From positions 818,659 through 882,658 of the forward strand of contig DATIBO010000006.1 in NCBI GenBank assembly GCA_035457485.1: DNA of 64,000 nt, read 5' to 3'. Within the stretch, counting starts at the first letter, position 1, and every line of letters starts with the position of its first letter. The position numbers and the translations under genes were made by a program. Origin of the DNA: Candidatus Saccharimonadales bacterium (GTDB lineage Bacteria > Patescibacteriota > Saccharimonadia > Saccharimonadales > EFPC-124). The notes under the pieces are model-generated. The model saw nothing but the letters and a program-made list of their open reading frames with translations. It was not told the DNA's origin and did no database searches. Shown here in pieces: positions 8,962-30,703 of the stretch.

Positions 8962-9075
8962 CGGGCGAGTCCAGTTAAATGCTTTTACTATCGTAACATT
9001 TTTATAGCACTTCGCCCATTGATAAGTTCTCTTACATCCATCCTGGAGCGAGATGTCGCCCGGGAACTTTGGGAT

Positions 9076-9110
9076 GCGCCCGGACAGCAAAGTGAACACT
9101 GCCCGGGCGC
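9076..9110 (-). terminator. GC-rich hairpin 28 nt downstream of the island-1 CDS
   Basis: On the minus-strand RNA, GCGCCCGGGCAG (9110..9099) pairs with CUGUCCGGGCGC (9087..9076). That gives 12 bp including one G-U, with an 11-nt loop and no U-tract. Confidence 0.55.
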
Positions 9111-9137
9111 TGTCAGTTTTGACCGACTGACGACGGT

Positions 9138-9962
9138 TTAATCATCGACGAAGGCGCCGCTTTCCTGATCGGGATAGCGAACATCCAGGCCTGAGACGCG
9201 GAAGTCAGAGAAGGCCTCGGACATCCAGACCCGATTCTTGCTCGAGGCGCCTACGACCTCCTCTTGCCAGGCGAGCTCGCCGAAGCGAGCCAGGAACGCC
9301 GTCTTGACGAACTCGTCCTCATCCAACGAACCCGTGCCGAATTCACGGCCGATCGTCCAGATTTTGAGGGCGTCCATCAGGTGTGGAATCGACAGCTGCA
9401 CGCCGAAGTCTGGATGAGCCACCAGAGCCCGAAGCGTGTCGTTGTCTGGGTTGCACGCGGCGATGATGCGGAACAGTGCTTCAGCGATGTCGCTGTGATC
9501 GGGATCGGAGTCTCCCCGGTCGCCGAAGAAAACCGCATCGCCGCGACCAGCCATGAGCACAACCGCCACATGAAGCGAGTTGTTCGTATCGAACCCATCG
9601 CCGCGCGGCACAAGGTGAATGCCGCCAGCGGTCAGGGTTGCGATCCCGAACGGATCACTCTCGTCTGGACCCTCGTACAGGTCCAGTACGACCATGCCGC
9701 GGTAGCCGAACTGAGGGCGGCCGAGCGAAACGGCCTTCCCCACCACATCAGCATAGTCCTCGGCTCTGTACTTGCCGGCGTGAATGAGATCCGCGAGGTC
9801 GCGGTCCATCACGTAAGCGTCCACGGCAGACTCGAAGTCGGTCTTCAAGTCCAATCGCGCCGCCACTGCTGGAATCTCAGGCTCCGGCAATGCCAAAGCC
9901 CCGGTTAGCCGACAAATCACCTCAAATCGGAGGAAATTGTCAGATCTTGCACCCCAGATCAT
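9138..9962 (-). CDS. Hypothetical protein, 274 aa, compositionally foreign (high-GC island 1)
   Basis: ATG 9962 is preceded by GAAGGGAGAGCA. Codons are strongly G/C-ending in this frame. A 214-aa antisense shadow ORF is typical of high-GC coding DNA. The product is acidic and cytoplasmic-looking, with no motif I recognise. Confidence 0.75.
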   Translation of the reverse strand: MIWGARSDNFLRFEVICRLTGALALPEPEIPAVAARLDLKTDFESAVDAYVMDRDLADLIHAGKYRAEDYADVVGKAVSLGRPQFGYRGMVVLDLYEGPDESDPFGIATLTAGGIHLVPRGDGFDTNNSLHVAVVLMAGRGDAVFFGDRGDSDPDHSDIAEALFRIIAACNPDNDTLRALVAHPDFGVQLSIPHLMDALKIWTIGREFGTGSLDEDEFVKTAFLARFGELAWQEEVVGASSKNRVWMSEAFSDFRVSGLDVRYPDQESGAFVDD

Positions 9963-10016
9963 TGCTCTCCCTTCGAGCCGCCGCAGAACTTCTGCAGCAA
10001 GCGGATGATCTGATGA

Positions 10017-16167: not shown

Positions 16168-17367
16168 CTAGTCAAGCAATTTTTTTAACGCAATTTCAAA
16201 CGCCGCTTGCTTTAAACTGACATTATTTTTACTGGCGTATCTTATAGTCTTTTGAGTAGCTGCCGAAATGACTTCATCTAATTTTTGGTTAACTGATAGC
16301 TCCGTCCAAGTCTCGCCAGCCAGGTTTTGCTGCCATTCCAAGCAAGACACAGTAACGCCACCAGCATTTGCAATTACATCTGGCAAAATTACCTTTTTAC
16401 GCTCAATTAAGGTGTCCTCAGCCTGCTTGCTAATCGGGCCATTTGCAAGTTCAACGATAAAATCTGCCCTAACTTTATCGACATTCTCTTTTGTAACTGC
16501 ATCCTCAAGCGCGGCCAAAACCAAGATATCGGCTTGCACACCGATAATCTCGCTGCTTGGTAAAATCTTGGCATTTTTTAAATCATCTAAATCTTCTGGC
16601 TGCGGTATGCTTTTTTGACGACCCTCAACATTTATGCCATCGGAATTAACCCATGTGTTTTTACTGTTTGCTATAGCAATAAGTTTTAAATTTGGCGCGA
16701 CTTTCTTGATCGATTCCGCAAAAAAATAGCCCACATTCCCAAAGCCTTGCAAGGCGACCGTTAGCGGCGAGTTTAGCAAATTCTTGCTCTTTAAAAATTC
16801 ACGCAGGCTTATCGCACCACCCAAGCCAGTAGCGGCTTCGCGCCCTTCGCTGCCCCCGTACTTAGTTGATTTACCCGTAAAACTTGCCGCATCTTTTTTG
16901 CCGATGGTTTTCTCAAACTCATCTACCATCCAGTCTATGATTTGCGCATTAGTATTAACATCTGGCGCCGGAACATCTTTGTCCGATCCTATATGTGGCG
17001 CCAAGTGCCGGGCATAAGCTCGCGATAATTCTTCGATTTCATCTGCGCTCAGAGTCTTAGGGTCAACAACAACCCCGCCCTTGCCTCCGCCAAGCGGCAG
17101 TCCAACTGCGGCGGTTTTTAAACTCATTAAAGTTGCGAGTGCGCGAACTTCATCTAAGTTTACCTGTTTATGAAACCTGACTCCGCCCTTGAACGGCCCC
17201 AACTTATTACTATGCTGCACTCTATAGGCTGTAAATTTTTTGCCATTTTTAAGTTCAATTTCAAAAATATGCTCAGCTTCGGCCTCCAGCAACGCCTGAA
17301 TTTTTTGTTCGCTGTACCCCAAGCGAGTCGCGGCCTCACGAATATTTTGCTGAGCGGTTTCTAACAT
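16168..17367 (-). CDS. Glu/Leu/Phe/Val-family amino-acid dehydrogenase (glutamate dehydrogenase-like)
   Basis: FKGGVRFH and the catalytic-Lys region LPLGGGKGGV, followed by a C-terminal Rossmann segment GFGNVG. Substrate cannot be fixed from sequence alone. Confidence 0.8.
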   Translation of the reverse strand: MLETAQQNIREAATRLGYSEQKIQALLEAEAEHIFEIELKNGKKFTAYRVQHSNKLGPFKGGVRFHKQVNLDEVRALATLMSLKTAAVGLPLGGGKGGVVVDPKTLSADEIEELSRAYARHLAPHIGSDKDVPAPDVNTNAQIIDWMVDEFEKTIGKKDAASFTGKSTKYGGSEGREAATGLGGAISLREFLKSKNLLNSPLTVALQGFGNVGYFFAESIKKVAPNLKLIAIANSKNTWVNSDGINVEGRQKSIPQPEDLDDLKNAKILPSSEIIGVQADILVLAALEDAVTKENVDKVRADFIVELANGPISKQAEDTLIERKKVILPDVIANAGGVTVSCLEWQQNLAGETWTELSVNQKLDEVISAATQKTIRYASKNNVSLKQAAFEIALKKLLD

Positions 17368-17420
17368 AACTCTCCTTTTGCTGAACTAATAGTACTCCGA
17401 TTTTGCTGCGAAACAAACAA

Positions 17421-19169
17421 TTACCAGCCCCCTCCGCCGCCACCTCCACCACCGCCGCCCGAGAACCCACCCGAGCCGCCGCTGCCGCCAGAACTCGGAG
17501 GCGCGAAACTCGCAGCGCTCGCCGACTCGAAGCTCGAAAGTGTACTTGCAAAAACCACCGAGTTAAACGTCGTTGATCCACTATACCAGCTCGGCTCCTG
17601 TTCATATAAGTGCGCCAGTTGTTTTGCCCATTCCTTTTCAATCCCAAATAACATTGCGTATGGCAGTAGTCGTTCGTAAAGTTTTACTAATTGCTTTTTA
17701 TCGTCAACGTTTACTTTTTCGGTTAAAGTTCCTTGGGGACTTTGCAAAACTTTAATTCGCTCTGCTTCGGCCAGTTGCATGTACATTTTTAAGCCGAGCA
17801 AATGATCACGTTTTTCAACACCCAACGCAGTGCGTGCCGGCATCGTACCACTAGCAATCATTACAATAAGTCCCGCCAAAATTAATCCGATAGTCCATGG
17901 AACAAACACAAAACCCACGACCATCAGCATAGCTCCGACCACAATATACGGTGTTTTTGCCTTTTCAGGCGCGACCCTAAAGTAGCCTTTTGTCGCCAAG
18001 TTAGAATTTATATCTTTGCCAAGCTTTTGAACTTTAGTCGCCAAAGTTTTACTAATACTACCAAGCTTTACTTTGTCGCCTTTGCGCGGATTCTGACTAC
18101 CAAAAATCAAACTTAAAACCTCGCGCTCCTCTTTTGCGAGCTCACCATCTCTGTTGTATTCAATCTCGTAGTCTGTCTTGTGCCCAATCAGCTTATTCTC
18201 TTTGATTTCGTAGATTTTTATAAAATGGCGAACTGCAAGATCAATAATTTGCGCTGAGATAGCCTTTGATTCAAATCTTTCAGTTAAAAGTGCGTTGGAC
18301 TCCAAAACCGTAATATTCTTTGGCGGCAAATACTCCGGCACAATAATGCCTCTTCCCTTGGGGTCTCGACCGTAACGACGCCAATTGCGTACTACTATAA
18401 TTAGTGCTATAACCGGCGGAAGAACAACCACTGCCGCGATTGCAACCCACCTTAGAACAACTTTGGCACTTGGCTTATAAGCTACAAACGCATCAGAATT
18501 GAACAGCAGCGCAAAGGTTAGAGTTTGGCCAGCATCAAGAGCTGTATCACTCTTTACTGTAATGGTTTTACCACTTAAAGAGTCGTTCGTTGTTATATCG
18601 CAAAACTGATTGGTTTCTCCAAAACTACCAGTAAAACAAAATTTTTGGTCTTGCAGCTTAGCGGCAAGCTCAGGCGTTAAATGAACCCGAGCCTCAACAT
18701 TAGTCATTTGCTGCTGCCATTGATCGCCGTTGACATCCCAATATAACTCATCATGGTCATCTAAGTTTAGGGTAACTCCACGCATTAGATAACTAATTTT
18801 GTAGATCTGCTCTCCATGCACATATGTATCTGCCTCACCGATTTGCAAAACCAAATTACCATTTTCACTGTATGTCTCGTAGGGTACGTTCTGATCTTGC
18901 GCATTTTTAACGCTAATAATGCTAAGCTCTAGCCCATGGCCATCGTACGATTCAGGTATAGCTCGCAAAATTCCGTGATTTTGGTTAAAGTTTGGAAAAA
19001 TCGCCGTGATCCGCTCTTCTACCCTGAGTTCCGACACAGCTTCTTTGTCAGAGCTTAAATAATAGTCGGCCTCGAACCTCGGTATTTTAAAATCTTGAAC
19101 GTTTGCCGCAAAAACCCCTTGTGGCAAAGTTAATAAAATCACAAAGACTAGAGTAACGAGCTTTCTCAT
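17421..19169 (-). CDS. DUF2207-like membrane protein with Gly-rich C-terminal tail
   Basis: Signal/anchor sequence, a large extracytoplasmic N-domain, 3 TMs and a cytoplasmic domain. It ends in SGGSGGSGGFSGGGGGGGGGGGW. The family call comes from remembered architecture. Confidence 0.6.
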   Translation of the reverse strand: MRKLVTLVFVILLTLPQGVFAANVQDFKIPRFEADYYLSSDKEAVSELRVEERITAIFPNFNQNHGILRAIPESYDGHGLELSIISVKNAQDQNVPYETYSENGNLVLQIGEADTYVHGEQIYKISYLMRGVTLNLDDHDELYWDVNGDQWQQQMTNVEARVHLTPELAAKLQDQKFCFTGSFGETNQFCDITTNDSLSGKTITVKSDTALDAGQTLTFALLFNSDAFVAYKPSAKVVLRWVAIAAVVVLPPVIALIIVVRNWRRYGRDPKGRGIIVPEYLPPKNITVLESNALLTERFESKAISAQIIDLAVRHFIKIYEIKENKLIGHKTDYEIEYNRDGELAKEEREVLSLIFGSQNPRKGDKVKLGSISKTLATKVQKLGKDINSNLATKGYFRVAPEKAKTPYIVVGAMLMVVGFVFVPWTIGLILAGLIVMIASGTMPARTALGVEKRDHLLGLKMYMQLAEAERIKVLQSPQGTLTEKVNVDDKKQLVKLYERLLPYAMLFGIEKEWAKQLAHLYEQEPSWYSGSTTFNSVVFASTLSSFESASAASFAPPSSGGSGGSGGFSGGGGGGGGGGGW

Positions 19170-22911: not shown

Positions 22912-24333
22912 CTAGTAAGATTGCGCAAAAACCCATTTAGTTTTACTCGGTTCGCCTGTGTAAAAGTCGGTTCCCTCGCCTTCGCCGATCATACAGCGAC
23001 TCGACGCCTTGGTTTCTTCTTTGATTTTAGCTTCAATTTCTTTATTGTCGTTCCAATAGACTTCAATAAAGCCTTTGTCTTCTTGAGTCATAAGCTGTTT
23101 GAACTCTTCGTAATTTTTAGCAACTCTAGTTCGTTGCTCTACCAAAGTTTTTGCACCTTTAAGCATATTCTTTTGAATATCGTCTAAGCGGGATTCAACA
23201 GATTGAACGAATTCTTCAACTGTTATCGTCTCTTTTTTGCCGTCCCATCGACGAACAACGGTAACCTGATTGTTTTCAAGTTCGCGCTTGCCGACTTCTA
23301 TACGAATCGGTACACCTTTAACTTCCCATTTATTAATCTTAAACCCTAGGCGCTCGTCGTCGCGATCATCAACTTTTACCCTAAGACCTTTAGATTTAAG
23401 AGATTTCTCAAGGTTCCTGGAAAAATCAACCAGCTCATCATTTGCAATCACAGGCAAAATAACAATCTGGATCGGCGCAAGTTTAGGAGGTAGTCGTAAT
23501 CCGTTGTCGTCTCCATGAGCCAAAATCAAACCACCGATTGATCTAGTGGAAAGCCCCCAGCTAGTCTGCCAAACATATGCCTGTTCGCCGTCTTTGTTCT
23601 GAAAACTAATATCAAAGGCTTTGGCAAAGTTCTGGCCTAAATCATGCGACGTACAGCTTTGGAGTGCTTTACCGCTTGGCATAAGATGCTCAAGAGTTAA
23701 AGTGTCGTCAGCGCCCGCAAACCGCTCTGATGTAGATTTATGACCCTGATATCCGTAAAGTGCAAAATAATCTTCGTAAATTTGTTTATAAACGCCCAGC
23801 GCCCATTTTTGAGTTTCTATTGCCTCGCTGTGAGTCGCATGAGCTGTGTGGCCTTCTTGCCATAAAAACTCGCTAGTGCGCAAAAAGGGCATAGTACGTT
23901 TTTCCCAACGCACCACGTTACACCACTGGTTAAACAGAATCGGCAAATCACGCCAAGACTGCACCCACTTGCTAAATGAATCGTTGATAATTGTTTCGCT
24001 GGTTGGGCGAACCACTAAAGGCTCTTCGAGTTTTTCACCGCCGCCATGCGTTACGACCGCAAGCTCCGGCGAAAAACCTTCAACGTGATTCTTTTCTTTT
24101 TCCAAGAAAGACATTGGAATAAACAATGGAAAATATCCGTTTTCCACGCCGTGCTCCTTGAACTTTTCGTCTAAGGCTTTTTGGGCAAGCTCCCAAATCG
24201 CGTATCCGTAAGGCTTAATGATCATCGATCCCTTACTTGGACCGTAATCAGCTAAGTCGGCTAGTTGAATTAGCGTTGTATACCAGTCCGAAAGATCACC
24301 AGTTTTTTTAGGAAGTAATTTTTTTTCACTCAT
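22912..24333 (-). CDS. proS: Prolyl-tRNA synthetase, archaeal/eukaryote-like short type
   Basis: 473 aa with no bacterial INS editing insertion. It has RPTSET and ends in ...FAQSY (C-terminal Tyr). Confidence 0.85.
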   Translation of the reverse strand: MSEKKLLPKKTGDLSDWYTTLIQLADLADYGPSKGSMIIKPYGYAIWELAQKALDEKFKEHGVENGYFPLFIPMSFLEKEKNHVEGFSPELAVVTHGGGEKLEEPLVVRPTSETIINDSFSKWVQSWRDLPILFNQWCNVVRWEKRTMPFLRTSEFLWQEGHTAHATHSEAIETQKWALGVYKQIYEDYFALYGYQGHKSTSERFAGADDTLTLEHLMPSGKALQSCTSHDLGQNFAKAFDISFQNKDGEQAYVWQTSWGLSTRSIGGLILAHGDDNGLRLPPKLAPIQIVILPVIANDELVDFSRNLEKSLKSKGLRVKVDDRDDERLGFKINKWEVKGVPIRIEVGKRELENNQVTVVRRWDGKKETITVEEFVQSVESRLDDIQKNMLKGAKTLVEQRTRVAKNYEEFKQLMTQEDKGFIEVYWNDNKEIEAKIKEETKASSRCMIGEGEGTDFYTGEPSKTKWVFAQSY

Positions 24334-24446: not shown

Positions 24447-25172
24447 CTAGCTAACCTTAAAAACAAACAACAGCAAAAAAGCTACTGAGTTTTTAAATAC
24501 ATGCAAAAATATAGATGGCCACAGACTGCCGCTTTTTTCGCGGATGAAACAACTGATCATACTCATTACGAAAACATCTATAGCCACATTTAGTTGCCAG
24601 TGTGCTGCTGCAAAAAAAACACTCACCAAGACGGCAGCAAACCAAAATGGCAGTTTGTTGCGAAAACCCGTAAAAATTAGGCCTCTAAATAAAAACTCTT
24701 CGGCGAATGGCGTTAAAATTACCAATACAAAAAATGTCAGTAGATATTCAGCACCGACCAAATTCGCAAATCCAACATCTTGGGATTCCTCCATGTTGAT
24801 CGGAAAAAGCAAGCTCATCACGCCCAAAAACAAAATCGAAAGCGGCATGTAGGCTAAAAATGCCAAGCCAGCGGTCTTTAGGTATTTGAGGTTAAAATCA
24901 CTAAAACCGATCGCTTTAAAATCTAATTTATAGAACTTTAGAACTGCTGCGACGCCAGCTATAAGCAAGAGTTCATAAATAAGCGCAGCAATGAAGTTTT
25001 TAAAGTTACCGCTAATGTCTAGCTGCGTGACTAAAGGGGCGATAAATGCCAGTACTACGGCTGGGGCCGTAAAAATCAACACTCCCCAAAAAAGTGCACC
25101 GGCAATTCCCAGCTTTCGCTGTTTTGGACTTGACGCAACGTCTTGTGATTTTTTAGAAGAATCGTCTAACAT
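24447..25172 (-). CDS. CPBP-family intramembrane glutamic endopeptidase (CAAX protease/Abi-like)
   Basis: Motif 1 is EEFLFRG, motif 2 is FAAAHW, and there is a later H (FLHVFKN). Multi-TM. Confidence 0.8.
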   Translation of the reverse strand: MLDDSSKKSQDVASSPKQRKLGIAGALFWGVLIFTAPAVVLAFIAPLVTQLDISGNFKNFIAALIYELLLIAGVAAVLKFYKLDFKAIGFSDFNLKYLKTAGLAFLAYMPLSILFLGVMSLLFPINMEESQDVGFANLVGAEYLLTFFVLVILTPFAEEFLFRGLIFTGFRNKLPFWFAAVLVSVFFAAAHWQLNVAIDVFVMSMISCFIREKSGSLWPSIFLHVFKNSVAFLLLFVFKVS

Positions 25173-26235
25173 CTACAACTGTCACAACCACAATTAAAAC
25201 CATCAGGAATATAAATCCGCCTGCCTGAAAAGCTTCTTCTCGCTCTTTGGTAAGTGGTTTATTTAACGCTTTAAAAACTAAAGTCACAAACAACCGACCA
25301 CCGTCTAGTGCAGGTATTGGCAGCGCGTTCATAACAGCAAGTGTTAGCGAAATTACTCCTATTAAGAATAGCACTGGAACTATACCTGACTCGCTACTAT
25401 CTTTTAGGATGCCGAAAATTCCAACCGGGCCCGCCACGCTTGCACCAGCTGTAGCAAAATCGGCTTTAAATAAGCTTTTTACTACATCAAACAAACCCTT
25501 TATTGTTTCGTAGGTAAACTGAACGGTTACCCCTACGCCGACAATTGGCGCCGACCAAGTAGATCGCTGCGCAGTTTGCGTAGTTGGGGCAACACCCAAA
25601 TAACCTTGATCTGTTTTTTCGGCATTAAGTGTGGCTTCCGTTTCATTTATTTGGCCTTTGCGCTCATAAACAATTGGAACGGTTTGGCCAGCGCTAGCCT
25701 TTGTTAAATCTGTAAGCTGAGCTTCGGACGTAACAGTTTGGCCGGCGACACTTTTAATAATGTCACCCGATTGCAGGCCCGCCTTTGCCGCCGGCGAATC
25801 GTCCAATACCGCTACTTTTACATCAGAACTAACTACTACGGTGTCTGACGGGATTGTAAACTGATTTGGAAAAACTTTAGGAAGACCAACCAACGCCAAA
25901 ATAGTGAAGATAAACACTGCAACAAGCCAGTTTATCGCAACTCCGGCAAGCAGAATTTTGGTTTTCGCCCATAGAGTTGCGCCGCCGTACGTGCCATCGC
26001 CACTAGCTGCGTCATGTTCACCTTTTAACTTTACAAAGCCGCCGATCGGCAGCCAGTTAATGCTAAAAAGAACGCCATTTTTAAGCTTTTTAGCGAATGC
26101 TCGGGGTGGAAAACCAATCCCGAATTCTTCTACCTCGACACCGTTACGTTTAGCGGCAATAGCATGGCCAAGCTCGTGTACGATAATAAGCCCCACGAAT
26201 AAAATCAAACCAAAAATAAGTAATGCAATTTCCAT
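25153..26235 (-). CDS. rseP: RIP site-2 metalloprotease RseP (M50)
   Basis: HELGHAIAA (HExxH), an internal PDZ-like segment, and NALPIPALDGG. Confidence 0.85.
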   Translation of the reverse strand: MEIALLIFGLILFVGLIIVHELGHAIAAKRNGVEVEEFGIGFPPRAFAKKLKNGVLFSINWLPIGGFVKLKGEHDAASGDGTYGGATLWAKTKILLAGVAINWLVAVFIFTILALVGLPKVFPNQFTIPSDTVVVSSDVKVAVLDDSPAAKAGLQSGDIIKSVAGQTVTSEAQLTDLTKASAGQTVPIVYERKGQINETEATLNAEKTDQGYLGVAPTTQTAQRSTWSAPIVGVGVTVQFTYETIKGLFDVVKSLFKADFATAGASVAGPVGIFGILKDSSESGIVPVLFLIGVISLTLAVMNALPIPALDGGRLFVTLVFKALNKPLTKEREEAFQAGGFIFLMVLIVVVTVVDVRRFF

Positions 26236-26311: not shown

Positions 26312-26866
26312 CTAAATTGTCATAATTTCTTGCTCTTTGGCCTTCGCAAGAGTATCTAACTTAGTTTGCGCGCTAGCCATGGCTGCGTCGAGGGATTTTT
26401 CCGCTCGTTTGACATCATCTTCGGACATTGCTTTGGCGTCTTTTTGTGCTTTCGCGTCTTTTAGCGCATCATGACGAACGTTGCGCATAGCCACGCGGCA
26501 ATCTTCGACTTTTTCGCCAAGCTGTTTAACAATTTGCTGGCGACGCTCGGTGGTAAGCGGCGGCACGTTTACACGCACTACTCGCCCGTCATCCGACGGA
26601 TTAAAGCCAAGACTCTGGTCGTCGCGAATGGCTTTAACGACAGCTTGTAAATTCGCCATGTCAAATGGCGAGATCTGCAAAAGTTGTGGTTCTGGCACTG
26701 TTATGGTCGCCACCTGGATGAGCGGCATTTTTGCGCCGTAGGCTTCTACCATGATGCCATCAAGCATTCCAGGGTTAGCGCGGCCAGTGCGGATTTTTTT
26801 AATCTCGTCTTCAAAATGCAACAAAGCTAGTTGCAAGCGTTCTTCGTATTTTTTAGTATCAAACAT
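26312..26866 (-). CDS. frr: Ribosome recycling factor
   Basis: MFDTKKYEERLQLALLHFEDEIKKIRTGRANPGMLD... is typical of RRF. I start it at ATG 26866. The track ORF start at 26950 lies inside the GC-rich foreign segment. Confidence 0.9.
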   Translation of the reverse strand: MFDTKKYEERLQLALLHFEDEIKKIRTGRANPGMLDGIMVEAYGAKMPLIQVATITVPEPQLLQISPFDMANLQAVVKAIRDDQSLGFNPSDDGRVVRVNVPPLTTERRQQIVKQLGEKVEDCRVAMRNVRHDALKDAKAQKDAKAMSEDDVKRAEKSLDAAMASAQTKLDTLAKAKEQEIMTI

Positions 26867-26973
26867 AATTTTATAATAACAGAAGTAAAACTTTTTGGCA
26901 TGCGAAACCCCCTGAGGGGCTCCTGCATCTCGTGAATTCAGGCCCATCATGGGGGTTTGTGTTGGTACTTTGT

Positions 26974-27357
26974 TCAGATCTTCTTCGGGTTGGCGGTTGC
27001 GACCCAGGCGATCATCGCCAGCAGGCTGTGCACGATGGCGTAGCCGGTGGTGATGCTCACGACCTGCGCCACGTTGAGGTAGCCGTCGATCGTGAACGCG
27101 AAGGCCAGGATGTTGATACCGACCGTTGCGAAGAAAAGGTTGATCACGTTGATCAGGAAGTCGTCTCGGGTGAAGACCCGCTTGGACGTGCTTCCGATGA
27201 GCTCCTGGGGCAGAGCGCGCATAGTAGCGCGGTACGCAAAGAAGCCGGCGCTGAGAATCCCGAAGACGGCCAGCAGGAACGCCATGCCACTCATCTGAGG
27301 AGCATCGACGCCGAATGCCGGGTCGTTACCGAAGGGGTTCGTCGCGAGAACGTTCAT
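26974..27357 (-). CDS. Hypothetical 3-TM membrane protein, ~127 aa, compositionally foreign (high-GC island 3)
   Basis: GGAG (27366..27363) lies 5 nt before ATG 27357; the track start at 27363 is a GTG. Three hydrophobic helices: GMAFLLAVFGILSAGFFAY, FLINVINLFFATVGINILAFAFTI and VVSITTGYAIVHSLLAMIAWVA. A 165-aa antisense shadow ORF is present. Confidence 0.7.
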   Translation of the reverse strand: MNVLATNPFGNDPAFGVDAPQMSGMAFLLAVFGILSAGFFAYRATMRALPQELIGSTSKRVFTRDDFLINVINLFFATVGINILAFAFTIDGYLNVAQVVSITTGYAIVHSLLAMIAWVATANPKKI

Positions 27358-27417
27358 GATCACTCCAAAGTACGTGGTTCTGCCGATTGGCAGGCCGTCT
27401 TTTTGGACGGTAATGTA

Positions 27418-27446
27418 ATAATAACATAAGTAGTTTAAAAAGTCAA
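27418..27446 (-). promoter_or_regulatory. Sigma70-like promoter candidate just downstream of the tsf terminator
   Basis: The minus strand reads TTGACT (27446..27441), a 17-nt spacer, then TATTAT (27423..27418). It lies in AT-rich DNA immediately before the GC-rich island-3 segment. Confidence 0.45.
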
Positions 27447-27470
27447 TGTTAGAGCTTATGCTTAAATATA

Positions 27471-27499
27471 GAAATAACCCCTGTTAGGGGGGTTATTTC
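27471..27499 (-). terminator. Intrinsic terminator after tsf
   Basis: GAAATAACCCC (27471-27481) pairs with GGGGTTATTTC (27489-27499) around a 7-nt loop. It lies 20 nt past the tsf stop. Confidence 0.75.
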
Positions 27500-27518
27500 T
27501 TAGGTATTTTTAAGCGTC

Positions 27519-28118
27519 TTATTCGCTTACACCAAGTTCAAATCGCGCCATGCGGCGCACAACGATATTTTCACCTAATTTCGAGATATGACTTTTTACT
27601 AAGTCGCCAACTTTTTCGTCTGGGTTTTTGATGAATGGTTGTTCCATTAAGCAAAGTTCGCCAAAGTGTTTGGTGATCATGCCTTCAACAATTTTTGGAA
27701 CCATTGCCTCTGGCTTGCCTTCGTTTTTCACTTTTTCAGTAAATTCAGCAGCTTTTGCTTCGCGAACGTCGGCCGGAACGTCTTCGATGTTAACGTAAAG
27801 TGGCGCGCTTGCCGCAATATGCATTGCAAGGTCGTGCACCAAGTTTTTAAAGTCGTCAGTGCGAGCCACAAAGTCGGTTTCGCAGTTAACTTCTACTAAA
27901 ACGCCAATTCGGCCACTGTGAACATAGCTTTCTACCAAACCTTGGCTAGCTTCACGTTCGCCGCGCTTTTCGGCTTTGGTCAAGCCTTTTTTGCGCATTT
28001 CGCTCAATGCCTTGTCAAAGTCGCCATCAGCGTCGACCAAAGCTTGTTTTGCATCGGTTAAACCAACGCCGGTTAAATCTTTAAGTCGTTTTACTTCATC
28101 TAAAGATACGTTTGCCAT
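27519..28118 (-). CDS. tsf: Elongation factor Ts (short form)
   Basis: N-terminal UBA-like segment VKRLKDLTGVGLTDAKQALVDADGDFDKALSEMRKKG. Start chosen at ATG 28118, 1 nt after the rpsB stop. Confidence 0.9.
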   Translation of the reverse strand: MANVSLDEVKRLKDLTGVGLTDAKQALVDADGDFDKALSEMRKKGLTKAEKRGEREASQGLVESYVHSGRIGVLVEVNCETDFVARTDDFKNLVHDLAMHIAASAPLYVNIEDVPADVREAKAAEFTEKVKNEGKPEAMVPKIVEGMITKHFGELCLMEQPFIKNPDEKVGDLVKSHISKLGENIVVRRMARFELGVSE

Positions 28119-28119
28119 T

Positions 28120-28836
28120 TTATTCACCCTTCTTATCAGAGCTCTTGCGCCCGGCGATGCCTTCTTCAACAGCTTGTTTTACGTAGTCAACAATTAACTG
28201 AATACCTTTAATTGCATCGTCGTTTGCAGGAATAACGTAGTCAATCAAGTCTGGGTTTGCATTACTGTCAACAATAGCAACAACAGGGATATCTAGACGA
28301 CGAGCTTCTTTGATCGCGTTTTCTTCGACGACAACATCTACAACAAACATTGCACCTGGGCGACCATTAAGCTCTTTAATACCGCCGTACTTAAAGTTTA
28401 AACTGTCAATTTCCTCTTGGAAGCGCTGAACTTCTAGCTTGTTATAACGACCAGCAAGTTCGCCCGCCGCCATTTTGGTTTCAAGCTGCTTCAAATGCTT
28501 GATGCGTTCGTTAACAGTTTTAGTGTTAGTAAGCATTCCGCCCATCCAACGCTCGGTGATGTAAGGCATCTTGGTTTCAAGCGCAGCTTGTTTAACAATA
28601 TCGCGAGCTTGGCGCTTTGTGCTTACAAATAAAATTTGCTTGCCTTCGGCTGCTGTTTTGGTCAAAAACGGAAGAGCTTTTTCTAGACCTTCAACAGTTT
28701 TTGTTAAATCAATAATGTGGCTTCCAGCTCGTTTGCTGTGAATGTATTTGGCCATTTTTGGGTGCCAACGGCTTGTTTTGTGACCAAAATGCGCGCCAGA
28801 CGCGAGCAAGGCCTTAATATCTACTGATACTGCCAT
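28120..28836 (-). CDS. rpsB: 30S ribosomal protein S2
   Basis: GAHFGHKTSRWHPKM near the N-terminus; 238 aa; followed by tsf. Confidence 0.95.
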   Translation of the reverse strand: MAVSVDIKALLASGAHFGHKTSRWHPKMAKYIHSKRAGSHIIDLTKTVEGLEKALPFLTKTAAEGKQILFVSTKRQARDIVKQAALETKMPYITERWMGGMLTNTKTVNERIKHLKQLETKMAAGELAGRYNKLEVQRFQEEIDSLNFKYGGIKELNGRPGAMFVVDVVVEENAIKEARRLDIPVVAIVDSNANPDLIDYVIPANDDAIKGIQLIVDYVKQAVEEGIAGRKSSDKKGE

Positions 28837-28962: not shown

Positions 28963-28991
28963 TTGTGTAGTTAACCAAGTTGTGGTATAAA
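28963..28991 (+). promoter_or_regulatory. Promoter candidate, divergent from rpsB, now facing the island-4 CDS
   Basis: TTGTGT (28963-28968), a 17-nt spacer ending in TGG (extended -10 TGn), then TATAAA (28986-28991). Confidence 0.4.
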
Positions 28992-29020
28992 TTTGTAGCC
29001 TACAACGGAAGGAGAAGATC

Positions 29021-29551
29021 GTGACTGAGACCGACCCACAGTCCGACTCGGCGATCTACCGAAGGCAAGGAAGCCTCGTCGCCGGTCTGCTGATGGACAC
29101 CCTGAGGCGAGAACTCAGTGGACTGTCCAGAAGGAACGGCACTCACGAACTTCTGAGCTCAGTACTGGACCATCGTCGAATCGGCGACATGGTTCGCGAA
29201 CTGTCTCAGACCATCCCCCCGGATCTCGGTGCAATCGTTCGCGAAACCTCGCTGGGGCTCGACGAAGAGTCCCCGATTCCGAGGATCGTGGACGCCGATC
29301 AGGCACTCTCCAACATCAGCACCAAGCTCGAAGTCACGCAGCAACTCGTTCGGATCTTCCGAATCCTTCGGACGATCTACGCGGCAACACTCGTGCAGGA
29401 TCACTCGGTCGAGGGCTGTGCTGCTCTCGCCTGCGTGACCTATGGTCGCATCCTGGAGGTCGTCGACCTGAGGGAGGCAACCTTCGAGAGCGCACTCACG
29501 CTGCGCAAGGACGTGATCCGAGCACTTCAGGTCACAACGCTTGAGAGCTGA
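29021..29551 (+). CDS. Hypothetical protein, 176 aa, compositionally foreign (high-GC island 4)
   Basis: GTG start at 29021 with GGAAGGAG (29007-29014) 6 nt upstream. Composition looks helical with R/L/E/D-rich content. A strong terminator follows. No motif recognised. Confidence 0.7.
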   Translation: MTETDPQSDSAIYRRQGSLVAGLLMDTLRRELSGLSRRNGTHELLSSVLDHRRIGDMVRELSQTIPPDLGAIVRETSLGLDEESPIPRIVDADQALSNISTKLEVTQQLVRIFRILRTIYAATLVQDHSVEGCAALACVTYGRILEVVDLREATFESALTLRKDVIRALQVTTLES

Positions 29552-29560
29552 CAGCCCGCG

Positions 29561-29620
29561 AAAAAGCCCACGGAAGCCAAGATAACATCTGGCTCCGGCC
29601 GCGGCTTCCGCGGGCTTTTT
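29561..29620 (+). terminator. Intrinsic terminator after the island-4 CDS
   Basis: AAAAAGCCC-A-CGGAAGCC pairs with GGCTTCCG-C-GGGCTTTTT. That gives 12 GC-rich bp with one A/C mismatch plus an A5/T5 extension and a 24-nt loop. Confidence 0.8.
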
Positions 29621-29653
29621 CTATGGCCGCAAACTGGTATATAGTATTAGCCT

Positions 29654-30703
29654 ATGAACATAAAAGAACTCTTAAAAATCTACTGGTTTGCAATAACCGC
29701 AACTGCAGTAATCTGGATACTATCTTTCGCGTTTGGAGGCTGGCAAGCGCTTTTTACTGTAATAGTGCTAACTTTACTCGAAACCACATTTAGCGCCGAC
29801 AACGCCGTTGTTAACAGCAAAATTATCGTCACGCTATCGCCGTTTTGGCAAAAACTTTTTATGACGGTTGGTATTTTTATCGCCGTGTTTGTGGTGCGAT
29901 TCTTTGCGCCAATTTTAATAGTTATGGCAACTGCCGGCTTAGGTTTGACCGAAGTTATAAACTTAGCAATCAACGACACTCATGCCTATGAAATCGAGTT
30001 AGCAAAAGCCGAACCAATGATCAGCGCCTTCGGCGGTACGTTCTTAATTATGATCGCACTAAGCTACTTTATTGATTACGAAAAAAAGACCCACTGGTTA
30101 GGCTTTTTGGAAAAGCTCCTGGGTCGCCTGGGCCGCTTCGACAACATCACTACTTTTGTAATGCTACTTTCTGCTATAGCAATTTACTTTACAGTTGGTG
30201 CCGAACATCAGGCGGCGGTTTTAATCGCATCTGTAATGGCGATTGCCCTACATATTGGGCTGGAACTTTTGAGCGCTACGTTCGAAAACACTCGTAAAAA
30301 ATCACTCGACATCAAGCATAAAGTCGGTGCCGCAGCATTTGCAACTTTCTTGTATCTCGAAGTCTTAGACGCTTCGTTTTCATTAGATGGCGTAATCGGC
30401 GCATTTGCCCTAACAAGCAGTATTCTATTGATCATGCTAGGCCTGGGCGCTGGCGCAGTTTGGGTGCGCGCAATGACCATACATTTGGTAAAAGCGAAAA
30501 CCCTCAGCAAATACATATTTCTTGAGCACGGTGCACACTGGGCAATCGCTTTCTTGGGCCTAATTATGCTGCTAAAGCTCTATCATATTGAACTTTCGGA
30601 GTGGTTTGTTGGAAGCTTAGGCTTAGCGTTCATCGCTATAGCGATTTGGTGGAGCAAACGACACAGCAAACGTGTTGCGAGCAATTTAAAACCAAACCTT
30701 TGA
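29654..30703 (+). CDS. TerC/DUF475-like integral membrane protein
   Basis: 349 aa and about 9 TMs. [13 protein letters not shown] resembles the TerC-family SxDN motif. Confidence 0.55.

Follow-up and report, generated by a model that had tools for sequence, protein, structure and literature searches.

The DNA analysed here (the window) is a stretch of 64,000 nucleotides from contig DATIBO010000006.1 of a Candidatus Saccharimonadales bacterium. Its minus strand carries, in order, rpsB, tsf, a small open reading frame (ORF), frr, rseP, a CAAX protease gene and proS. The small ORF lies in a GC-rich islet (26905-27411) between tsf and frr, and GC content is about 0.60 across 26900-27400, against 0.445 for the window. 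We read the islet as a single-gene cassette, specific to this clade and transcribed on its own, that entered at the frr promoter and whose coding sequence (CDS) was later replaced, with pyrH uninvolved; we give this reading a probability of about 0.55. The features of the locus are listed below (SD, Shine-Dalgarno sequence; UTR, untranslated region; L082, a contig from the closest relative found).

28120-28836, minus strand: rpsB (Pfam)
27519-28118, minus strand: tsf (elongation factor Ts, 199 aa; Pfam)
27470-27500, minus strand: intrinsic terminator of tsf, a 12-13 bp stem followed by UAUAUU (-17.2 kcal/mol, z -4.8)
27418-27446, minus strand: cassette promoter TTGACT-17-TATTAT with a TG-extended -10 (10/12 matches; predicted transcription start near 27411)
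27411-27432, minus strand: direct-repeat copy A, TACTTATGTTATTATTACATTA, a duplicate of the frr core promoter
27358-27410, minus strand: structured 5' UTR with hairpins and the SD GGAG
27395-27410, minus strand: leader hairpin CCGUC/GACGG (fold prediction)
27380-27393, minus strand: leader hairpin CUGCC/GGCAG (fold prediction)
27402-27407 and 27364-27369, minus strand: SD-pairing segments UCCAAA and UUUGGA, covering three of the four SD bases
27363-27366, minus strand: SD GGAG, 5 nt before the ATG
26974-27357, minus strand: membrane-protein CDS, 127 aa, three transmembrane (TM) helices, N-out/C-in (codon GC, homologue, hydropathy, AF2 model)
26905-26958, minus strand: long imperfect 3' hairpin AAACCCCC...GGGGGUUU (fold prediction)
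26900-26928, minus strand: 12-bp 3' hairpin AUGCAGGAGCCCC/GGGGUUUCGCAU, conserved in L082 (z -3.65)
26873-26901, minus strand: frr promoter ATGCCA-17-TATTAT with a TG extension (-10 TATTAT at 26878-26873)
26866-26887, minus strand: direct-repeat copy B, TACTTCTGTTATTATAAAATTA, ending on the A of the frr ATG (21/22 positions match L082)
26312-26866, minus strand: frr (ribosome recycling factor, 184 aa; Pfam), ATG at 26866
25153-26235, minus strand: rseP (Pfam)

Every element that a preliminary description of this DNA had named (terminator, promoter, hairpins, GGAG, ORF, 3' hairpin and an frr that lacks an SD) was found in its place. The islet is not an artefact of the window, because a Logan assembly contig from run SRR25158331 matches the window at 100% over 20.6 kb spanning it, and the ORFs of the remaining islets (described below) are also on record on an 889-kb NCBI contig from a metagenome-assembled genome (MAG) of a Candidatus Saccharimonadales bacterium.

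Codon-position GC of the ORF (0.54/0.41/0.85), the spacing of its GGAG, which is the same in the relative, a syntenic homologue and a topology common to both proteins argue that the 127-aa minus-strand membrane protein is the product of a real, unannotated gene. The frame antisense to it (plus strand, 26932-27429, 155-165 aa) has codon-position GC of 0.78/0.42/0.51, the mirror image of a GC3-rich sense gene (GC3, GC content at third codon positions). The start is placed at the ATG at 27357 because an alternative GTG at 27363 overlaps the SD; a holin-like dual-start (MIM) motif was dropped for the same overlap and for want of conservation of the GTG in L082. Public gene calls give a 155-aa plus-strand ORF antisense to the membrane gene and stretch frr to 211 aa (L081 10690-11157 and 11172-11807). 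The antisense call looks wrong here, and so does the frr start at 26950 that the longer call implies, which falls inside the 3' hairpin; the start looks to be 26866.

The three membrane helices of the preliminary description hold up: hydropathy finds three hydrophobic segments, residues 24-48, 64-90 and 96-122 are helical in an AF2 model (pLDDT 71), and an N-out/C-in topology follows from the positive-inside count (acidic N-tail, basic loop 1, basic C-tail) for this protein and its homologue alike. Searches of Pfam, NCBIfam, PHROGs (E ≤ 0.1) and PDB sequence profiles returned no match. The single PADLOC match (CARF_TM, E 0.0097) covers 31 TM residues and does not place the protein in anti-phage defence, and Foldseek of the model against the PDB returned only generic three-helix or small membrane subunits (E ≥ 1). 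Exact look-up of the 127-aa and 129-aa products in protein collections found neither on record. The ORF has no paralogue in the window and, by tblastn and profile HMM, no relative among 160 related loci; viral contig scans with it, and with islets 1 and 4 of the window, found nothing. A diversity-generating retroelement (DGR) or other retroelement was dropped from consideration, a reverse transcriptase being absent nearby.

The product shares with class I holins of the lambda S type a size of about 100-130 aa, three TM helices and an N-out/C-in topology. It differs in having no endolysin, spanin or phage context and no PHROG match, in its short, weakly charged C-tail and in its housekeeping neighbours: no phage, lysin or toxin gene lies near the islet, which is flanked by rpsB, tsf, frr and rseP, and no integrase, transposase or recombinase is found within ±10 kb. 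Topology is thus the extent of the support for the earlier suggestion of a holin-like or immunity-like protein, which the PHROG, PADLOC, structure and context tests fail to bear out. The best description to which we can commit is a non-essential, rapidly diversifying accessory protein of the inner membrane. A tie to conflict or contact (phage or toxin exclusion, immunity, or host interaction) is a tentative functional guess, and a doubtful one.

The cassette in the closest relative

A phmmer search of 1.84 billion representative proteins found one genuine match, P0004 (113 aa, E 3e-6, 33% identity, collinear over the full length); a second match, to a repeat-rich 736-aa protein, was spurious. 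A word-indexed search of 5.8 billion protein clusters returned no match to the ORF alone, and an alignment of the two sequences found P0004 alone. P0004 is encoded directly between tsf and frr on L082, a 1.8-kb JGI contig, and this placement in the same slot rules out a chance match. The two organisms are 93% identical in Tsf and 92% in Frr at the protein level, and a metagenome scan with frr found no nearer relative.

The layout is shared as well. Both loci have the terminator, the extended -10 promoter, a leader of the form CGUCCAAAA...CUGCC/GGCAG...ACGUACUUUGGAG and a start at equal GGAG spacing; downstream of the stop codon both have CAAAGUACCA, a CCCCC...GGGGGUUUCGCAU hairpin and the frr promoter. 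The two proteins have the motifs FTRxD, TVG, AFAxTID and GYAxxH in common. Because a homologue occupies the same slot with a conserved promoter, leader fold and 3' hairpin, the cassette is, on this comparison, older than the split between the two lineages. The idea of a fresh foreign capture, put forward in the preliminary description, fails on the same homologue and conserved UTRs in the nearest relative. That description had named a copy of backbone-like composition at this position in relatives as evidence that would refute it. This is partly borne out: a same-slot copy exists, although in L082 it is still mildly GC-enriched (GC3 0.55). The gene is present at the site in the nearest relative and absent from more distant ones.

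Rates of change differ sharply along the locus. Between the window and L082, dN is 0.036 for tsf and 0.052 for frr (dS 0.86 and 1.86), and that of the membrane ORF is 0.72, which is 15-20 times the rate of its neighbours; such divergence is compatible with a weakly constrained protein changing in place. The promoter and leader together are 73% identical to L082 and the 3' region 68%, compared with 67% and 53% at the third codon positions of tsf and frr, which suggests that the non-coding frame of the cassette is under constraint.

RNAalifold gives the two leaders a single common fold, in which UCC/AAA pairs with UUU/GGA, ACG with CGU and CUGCC with GGCAG. All 14 pairs of this consensus are invariant and so provide neither covariation support nor contradiction. 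We infer that the leader sequesters the SD, and translation of the cassette is probably throttled or conditional through the predicted SD-pairing fold. The arrangement resembles known SD-sequestering leaders (ROSE and fourU thermometers, translational riboregulators) in that a stem covers three of the four bases of GGAG; it differs in being a predicted fold that has no covariation support and no significant Rfam match. Across the region the best Rfam E value was 0.6 or worse (15-24 bits against thresholds of 43-56 bits), and a ROSE_3 match was on the wrong strand.

The 3' hairpin reads as a leaky terminator or a stabiliser. No U-tract follows it, and read-through into frr is therefore likely. 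An integron attC site (RYYYAAC ... GTTRRRY) was considered for the hairpin arms AAACCCCC and GGGGGTTTCGC and rejected by inspection, since GTTTCGC misfits GTTRRRY; the hairpin is also conserved with the backbone in L082.

The frr promoter and the question of pyrH

Direct-repeat copies A and B match at 19 of 22 positions and bound a unit of 545 bp. Scanning the 64 kb with a tolerance of three mismatches yields these two copies and no others (chance expectation, none), and the alignment score of the repeat lies at or above the 99.9th percentile of AT-rich segment pairs from the window. Each copy holds an extended -10, and a promoter scanner calls both. The preliminary description had allowed that the cassette might have landed in the frr 5' UTR; the flanking repeat agrees closely with that, with the site now read as the frr promoter.

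The -10 of frr ends 6 nt before the ATG, which has no SD and lies 39 nt past the 3' hairpin. This is a leaderless layout, as the preliminary description had proposed, and it is common: in a non-redundant set of 92 Saccharibacteria frr loci, 46 lack an SD and carry a -10-like hexamer (TATAAT-like) 5-10 nt, usually 6-7 nt, from the start, and 34 loci of the same set have an SD. Leaderless-type frr thus appears to be widespread in Saccharibacteria, and because half of the loci share the layout it is not a by-product of the insertion. The sequence layout of frr (TGtTATTAT ending 6 nt before the ATG) is that of leaderless mRNAs, in which the -10 lies about 6-7 nt from the start and an SD is absent; the islet ORF is unlike them, with its 54-nt leader and GGAG.

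The gene string rpsB-tsf-pyrH-frr, followed later by rseP, is widely conserved in bacteria. Here rpsB, tsf, frr and rseP keep the canonical order and orientation; what sets Saccharibacteria apart is the absence of pyrH from the string, where the spacer holds lineage-specific ORFs instead. The comparison took in the surroundings of frr in 80 loci from genomes and 80 from metagenomes. Every Saccharibacteria locus with both tsf and frr has the order rpsB-tsf-[spacer]-frr-rseP, the spacer ranging from 8 to 3044 bp, and pyrH lies between tsf and frr in none of about 147. As a positive control, distant outgroup loci (frr 39-45% identical) do have a bona fide pyrH at that position (TIGR02075, E down to 1e-100), and tblastn matches to three bona fide PyrH queries are confined to 10 outgroup loci. 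The same queries find nothing in the window, which agrees with the earlier statement that pyrH is absent from it, and no pyrH homologue is hidden in the islet, whose ORF matches no Pfam or NCBIfam model and does not belong to TIGR02075.

Spacer ORFs are mostly unrelated to one another. Of 20 that were scanned with Pfam, two have an amino-acid-kinase domain (L052 5175-5930 and L062 5167-5946), and NCBIfam assigns both to proB-like glutamate 5-kinase (TIGR01027, E 1e-54 and 6e-49) rather than to pyrH. Relatives of the proB-like ORFs were also seen by tblastn in L039, L075 and L147.

The slot is therefore not one where pyrH normally sits in these organisms, contrary to the premise of the preliminary description. 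Since all sampled Saccharibacteria loci lack pyrH there, its absence from the site appears to be old and unrelated to the islet. The tsf-frr spacer reads as a variable slot, as does the rpsB-DUF475 spacer; judged from L082 and from gene distances, the frr-rseP spacer is variable too. In L082 a different ORF (1528-1772, MMCRTQKLGLGKRARIRAE...) follows frr in place of rseP, and the frr-rseP distance in other relatives lies between about 80 bp and about 2 kb. Literature searches on pyrH, UMP kinase or leaderless genes in Saccharibacteria turned up no relevant work.

Base composition and competing histories

The compositional anomaly noted in the preliminary description is pronounced: GC3 of the ORF is 0.85, against 0.406±0.039 for 51 native genes (z 11.4). 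It corresponds to genomes of about 62-65% GC, and the richest of the sampled Saccharibacteria has a GC3 of 0.76. The L082 allele has a GC3 of 0.55 in a backbone of equal GC (0.44-0.45). A relative-rate test with six outgroups puts roughly equal change on the branches leading to the two organisms (unique changes 3-8 for the window, 6-11 for L082). Under a two-state amelioration model the L082 value fits an ancestral GC3 of about 0.8-0.9, and the window value would need one above 1. A GC3 of 0.85 thus looks too high for a gene resident since the split (dS about 0.9-1.9), and the window allele most likely replaced an earlier one after the split, its source being a GC-rich carrier of this cassette. 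The nearest GTDB relatives (L001, L002, L003 and L015) have 50-58% GC and GC3 of 0.51-0.64, compared with 44-45% and 0.42 for the window and L082, whose lineage may have drifted towards AT.

Three further ORFan islets of about 60% GC lie in the window; with the tsf-frr islet as the third in order, they are islets 1, 2 and 4.

9040-10010, minus strand: islet 1, ORF of 274 aa
15715-16165, plus strand: islet 2, ORF of 127 aa, antisense to its neighbours
29010-29625, plus strand: islet 4, ORF of 176 aa, upstream of a DUF475/TerC gene

Each has a GC3 of 0.71-0.76, its own GGAG-type SD and a GC-rich hairpin. None has a family match, each forms a 90%-identity cluster by itself, and a homology search with the 274-aa ORF finds only itself. 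Because these islets share the GC3 excess, import is favoured over a force specific to the tsf-frr locus. Islet 4 is flanked by a 20-nt repeat (28983-29002 and 29635-29654, 16/20 identical) that includes, for the gene downstream, both its -10 and a start region of leaderless type; it echoes the frr case and reaches only the 95th percentile of background. No flanking repeat accompanies islets 1 and 2, and direct repeats at the islets other than the tsf-frr one are not significant. A GC-rich patch at 17301-17650 was rejected as an island, being the Gly/Ser-rich C-terminal tail of a DUF2207 membrane protein (17421-19169).

Taken together, these observations are consistent with the following history. 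As the repeat suggests, the cassette would have been inserted before this lineage of soil Saccharimonadales arose, and about 22 nt of core promoter at frr would have been duplicated in the process. The upstream copy, with a good -35, would now drive the cassette; the downstream copy would have stayed 6 nt from the frr ATG, leaving frr leaderless, and frr may also receive read-through across the hairpin that lacks a U-tract. The cassette mRNA would begin with a predicted leader of about 54 nt, in which UCCAAA pairs with the UUUGGA of the SD, so that translation is probably throttled or conditional. Its product would be a 127-aa, non-essential, fast-evolving accessory envelope protein of the inner membrane, and the present allele of GC3 0.85 would be a later arrival, acquired from a GC-rich source that carried this cassette.

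Several points weigh against this history. The RNAalifold consensus folds of the leader and the 3' region contain no compensatory changes, and the 22-nt repeat, though unique in the window, overlaps -10 consensus positions. The family has two members, and its conservation and structure come from a single comparison. The amelioration model is a back-of-envelope two-state estimate on saturated dS. A swap whose limits coincide almost exactly with those of the CDS is hard to explain mechanistically, except from a donor that shares the UTRs, and no donor or GC-rich homologue was found among 1.8 billion representative or 5.8 billion clustered proteins. The family, fold, PHROG and PADLOC searches give no match that backs any function.

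A purely vertical history is rather unlikely. Here the gene predates the split, has diverged near-neutrally and has kept its high GC3 through biased gene conversion or mRNA selection. A dN/dS of roughly 0.4-0.8 at saturated dS suffices for 33% identity, constraint on the UTRs but not on the protein would produce sharp CDS edges, and the donor search was empty. What speaks against it is the gap in GC3 between the two alleles in backbones of equal GC, together with roughly symmetric branches and the three other ORFan islets, whose GC3 excess points to import.

That pyrH was lost and the vacated gap recently caught a foreign gene for a small membrane protein (holin-like, immunity-like or a transport accessory) is improbable. 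A GC of 0.60 and a GC3 of 0.85 in a 44% GC genome would suit such a capture, as would an ORFan gene and the lack of pyrH in the window. The L082 locus largely refutes it, with a homologue, promoter, UTR and hairpin in the same slot at a dS of about 1-2; pyrH is also absent from the site in all of the roughly 147 Saccharibacteria loci and present in outgroups, PHROGs and PADLOC give the gene no match, and neither a lysin nor a toxin gene adjoins it.

We likewise give little credence to the 545-bp unit (promoter copy, UTR, CDS and hairpin) as a small mobile cassette of Saccharibacteria, their phages or plasmids that targets leaderless promoters, with UTRs belonging to the element itself. The 22-nt flanking repeat, UTRs conserved beyond synonymous sites and the weaker promoter-containing repeat around islet 4 fit such an element. 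Its occurrence as a single copy in the window and in none of 160 related loci by profile search does not, nor do the lack of a nearby recombinase or a viral contig match, the 95th-percentile score of the islet 4 repeat and the absence of repeats at islets 1 and 2.

Finally, that there is no membrane gene, the antisense ORF being real or the segment an assembly chimera, is very improbable: public gene callers did pick the antisense ORF and the 127-aa protein is missing from protein collections, but the antisense codon GC mirrors the sense frame, a homologue of the sense protein lies in synteny and shares its TM topology, the islet edges fall in short AT-rich UTRs homologous to L082, and the chimera was dropped on the Logan contig, with the other islet ORFs on the NCBI contig.

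Horizontal gene transfer into Patescibacteria has been reported on a scale of hundreds of islands and transferred genes (PMC12455944). Like the single-gene islets and ORFans described there, the present gene is a compositional outlier, nearly without homologues, in an intergenic slot of a streamlined Candidate Phyla Radiation (CPR) genome. It differs in that only the CDS is aberrant, the promoter, leader and hairpin being conserved with a relative, and in that a duplicated host promoter flanks the insert and mobility genes are absent. Among the marks of a recently transferred islet, anomalous composition and flanking repeats are present; mobility genes and a donor were not found.

A separate observation concerns proS (22912-24333), which is of the archaeal/eukaryote-like type (ProRS-C_1 domain). 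The prolyl-tRNA synthetases found by tblastn downstream of the CAAX protease in relatives are mostly 20-30% identical to that of the window, L069 alone reaching 66%, and the type may have switched within the clade.

Implications for Saccharibacteria

Our confidence in the structural and evolutionary description of the locus is moderate to high. On present evidence the locus is a lineage-specific accessory islet of unusual base composition that holds a two-member ORFan family. The analysis corrects a tempting inference from synteny, as sampled Saccharibacteria have no pyrH between tsf and frr. It also recovers a real gene where public annotation has an antisense ORF, and it corrects the start of frr. 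The spacers of the rpsB-tsf-frr-rseP string emerge as hot spots for strain-specific genes in a phylum of tiny genomes, and comparative evidence suggests that frr is commonly of the leaderless type in Saccharibacteria.

A more general process is conceivable, though we consider it a long shot: GC-rich ORFans (four in 64 kb) may have been inserted before leaderless promoters from high-GC partners, their CDSs then being exchanged between strains while the regulatory frame was kept. If so, an epibiont would have a system that exchanges cassettes for its envelope or interaction proteins. If the replacement was indeed confined to the CDS, the locus would provide a compact natural case of allele swapping within a conserved regulatory frame in an epibiotic bacterium.

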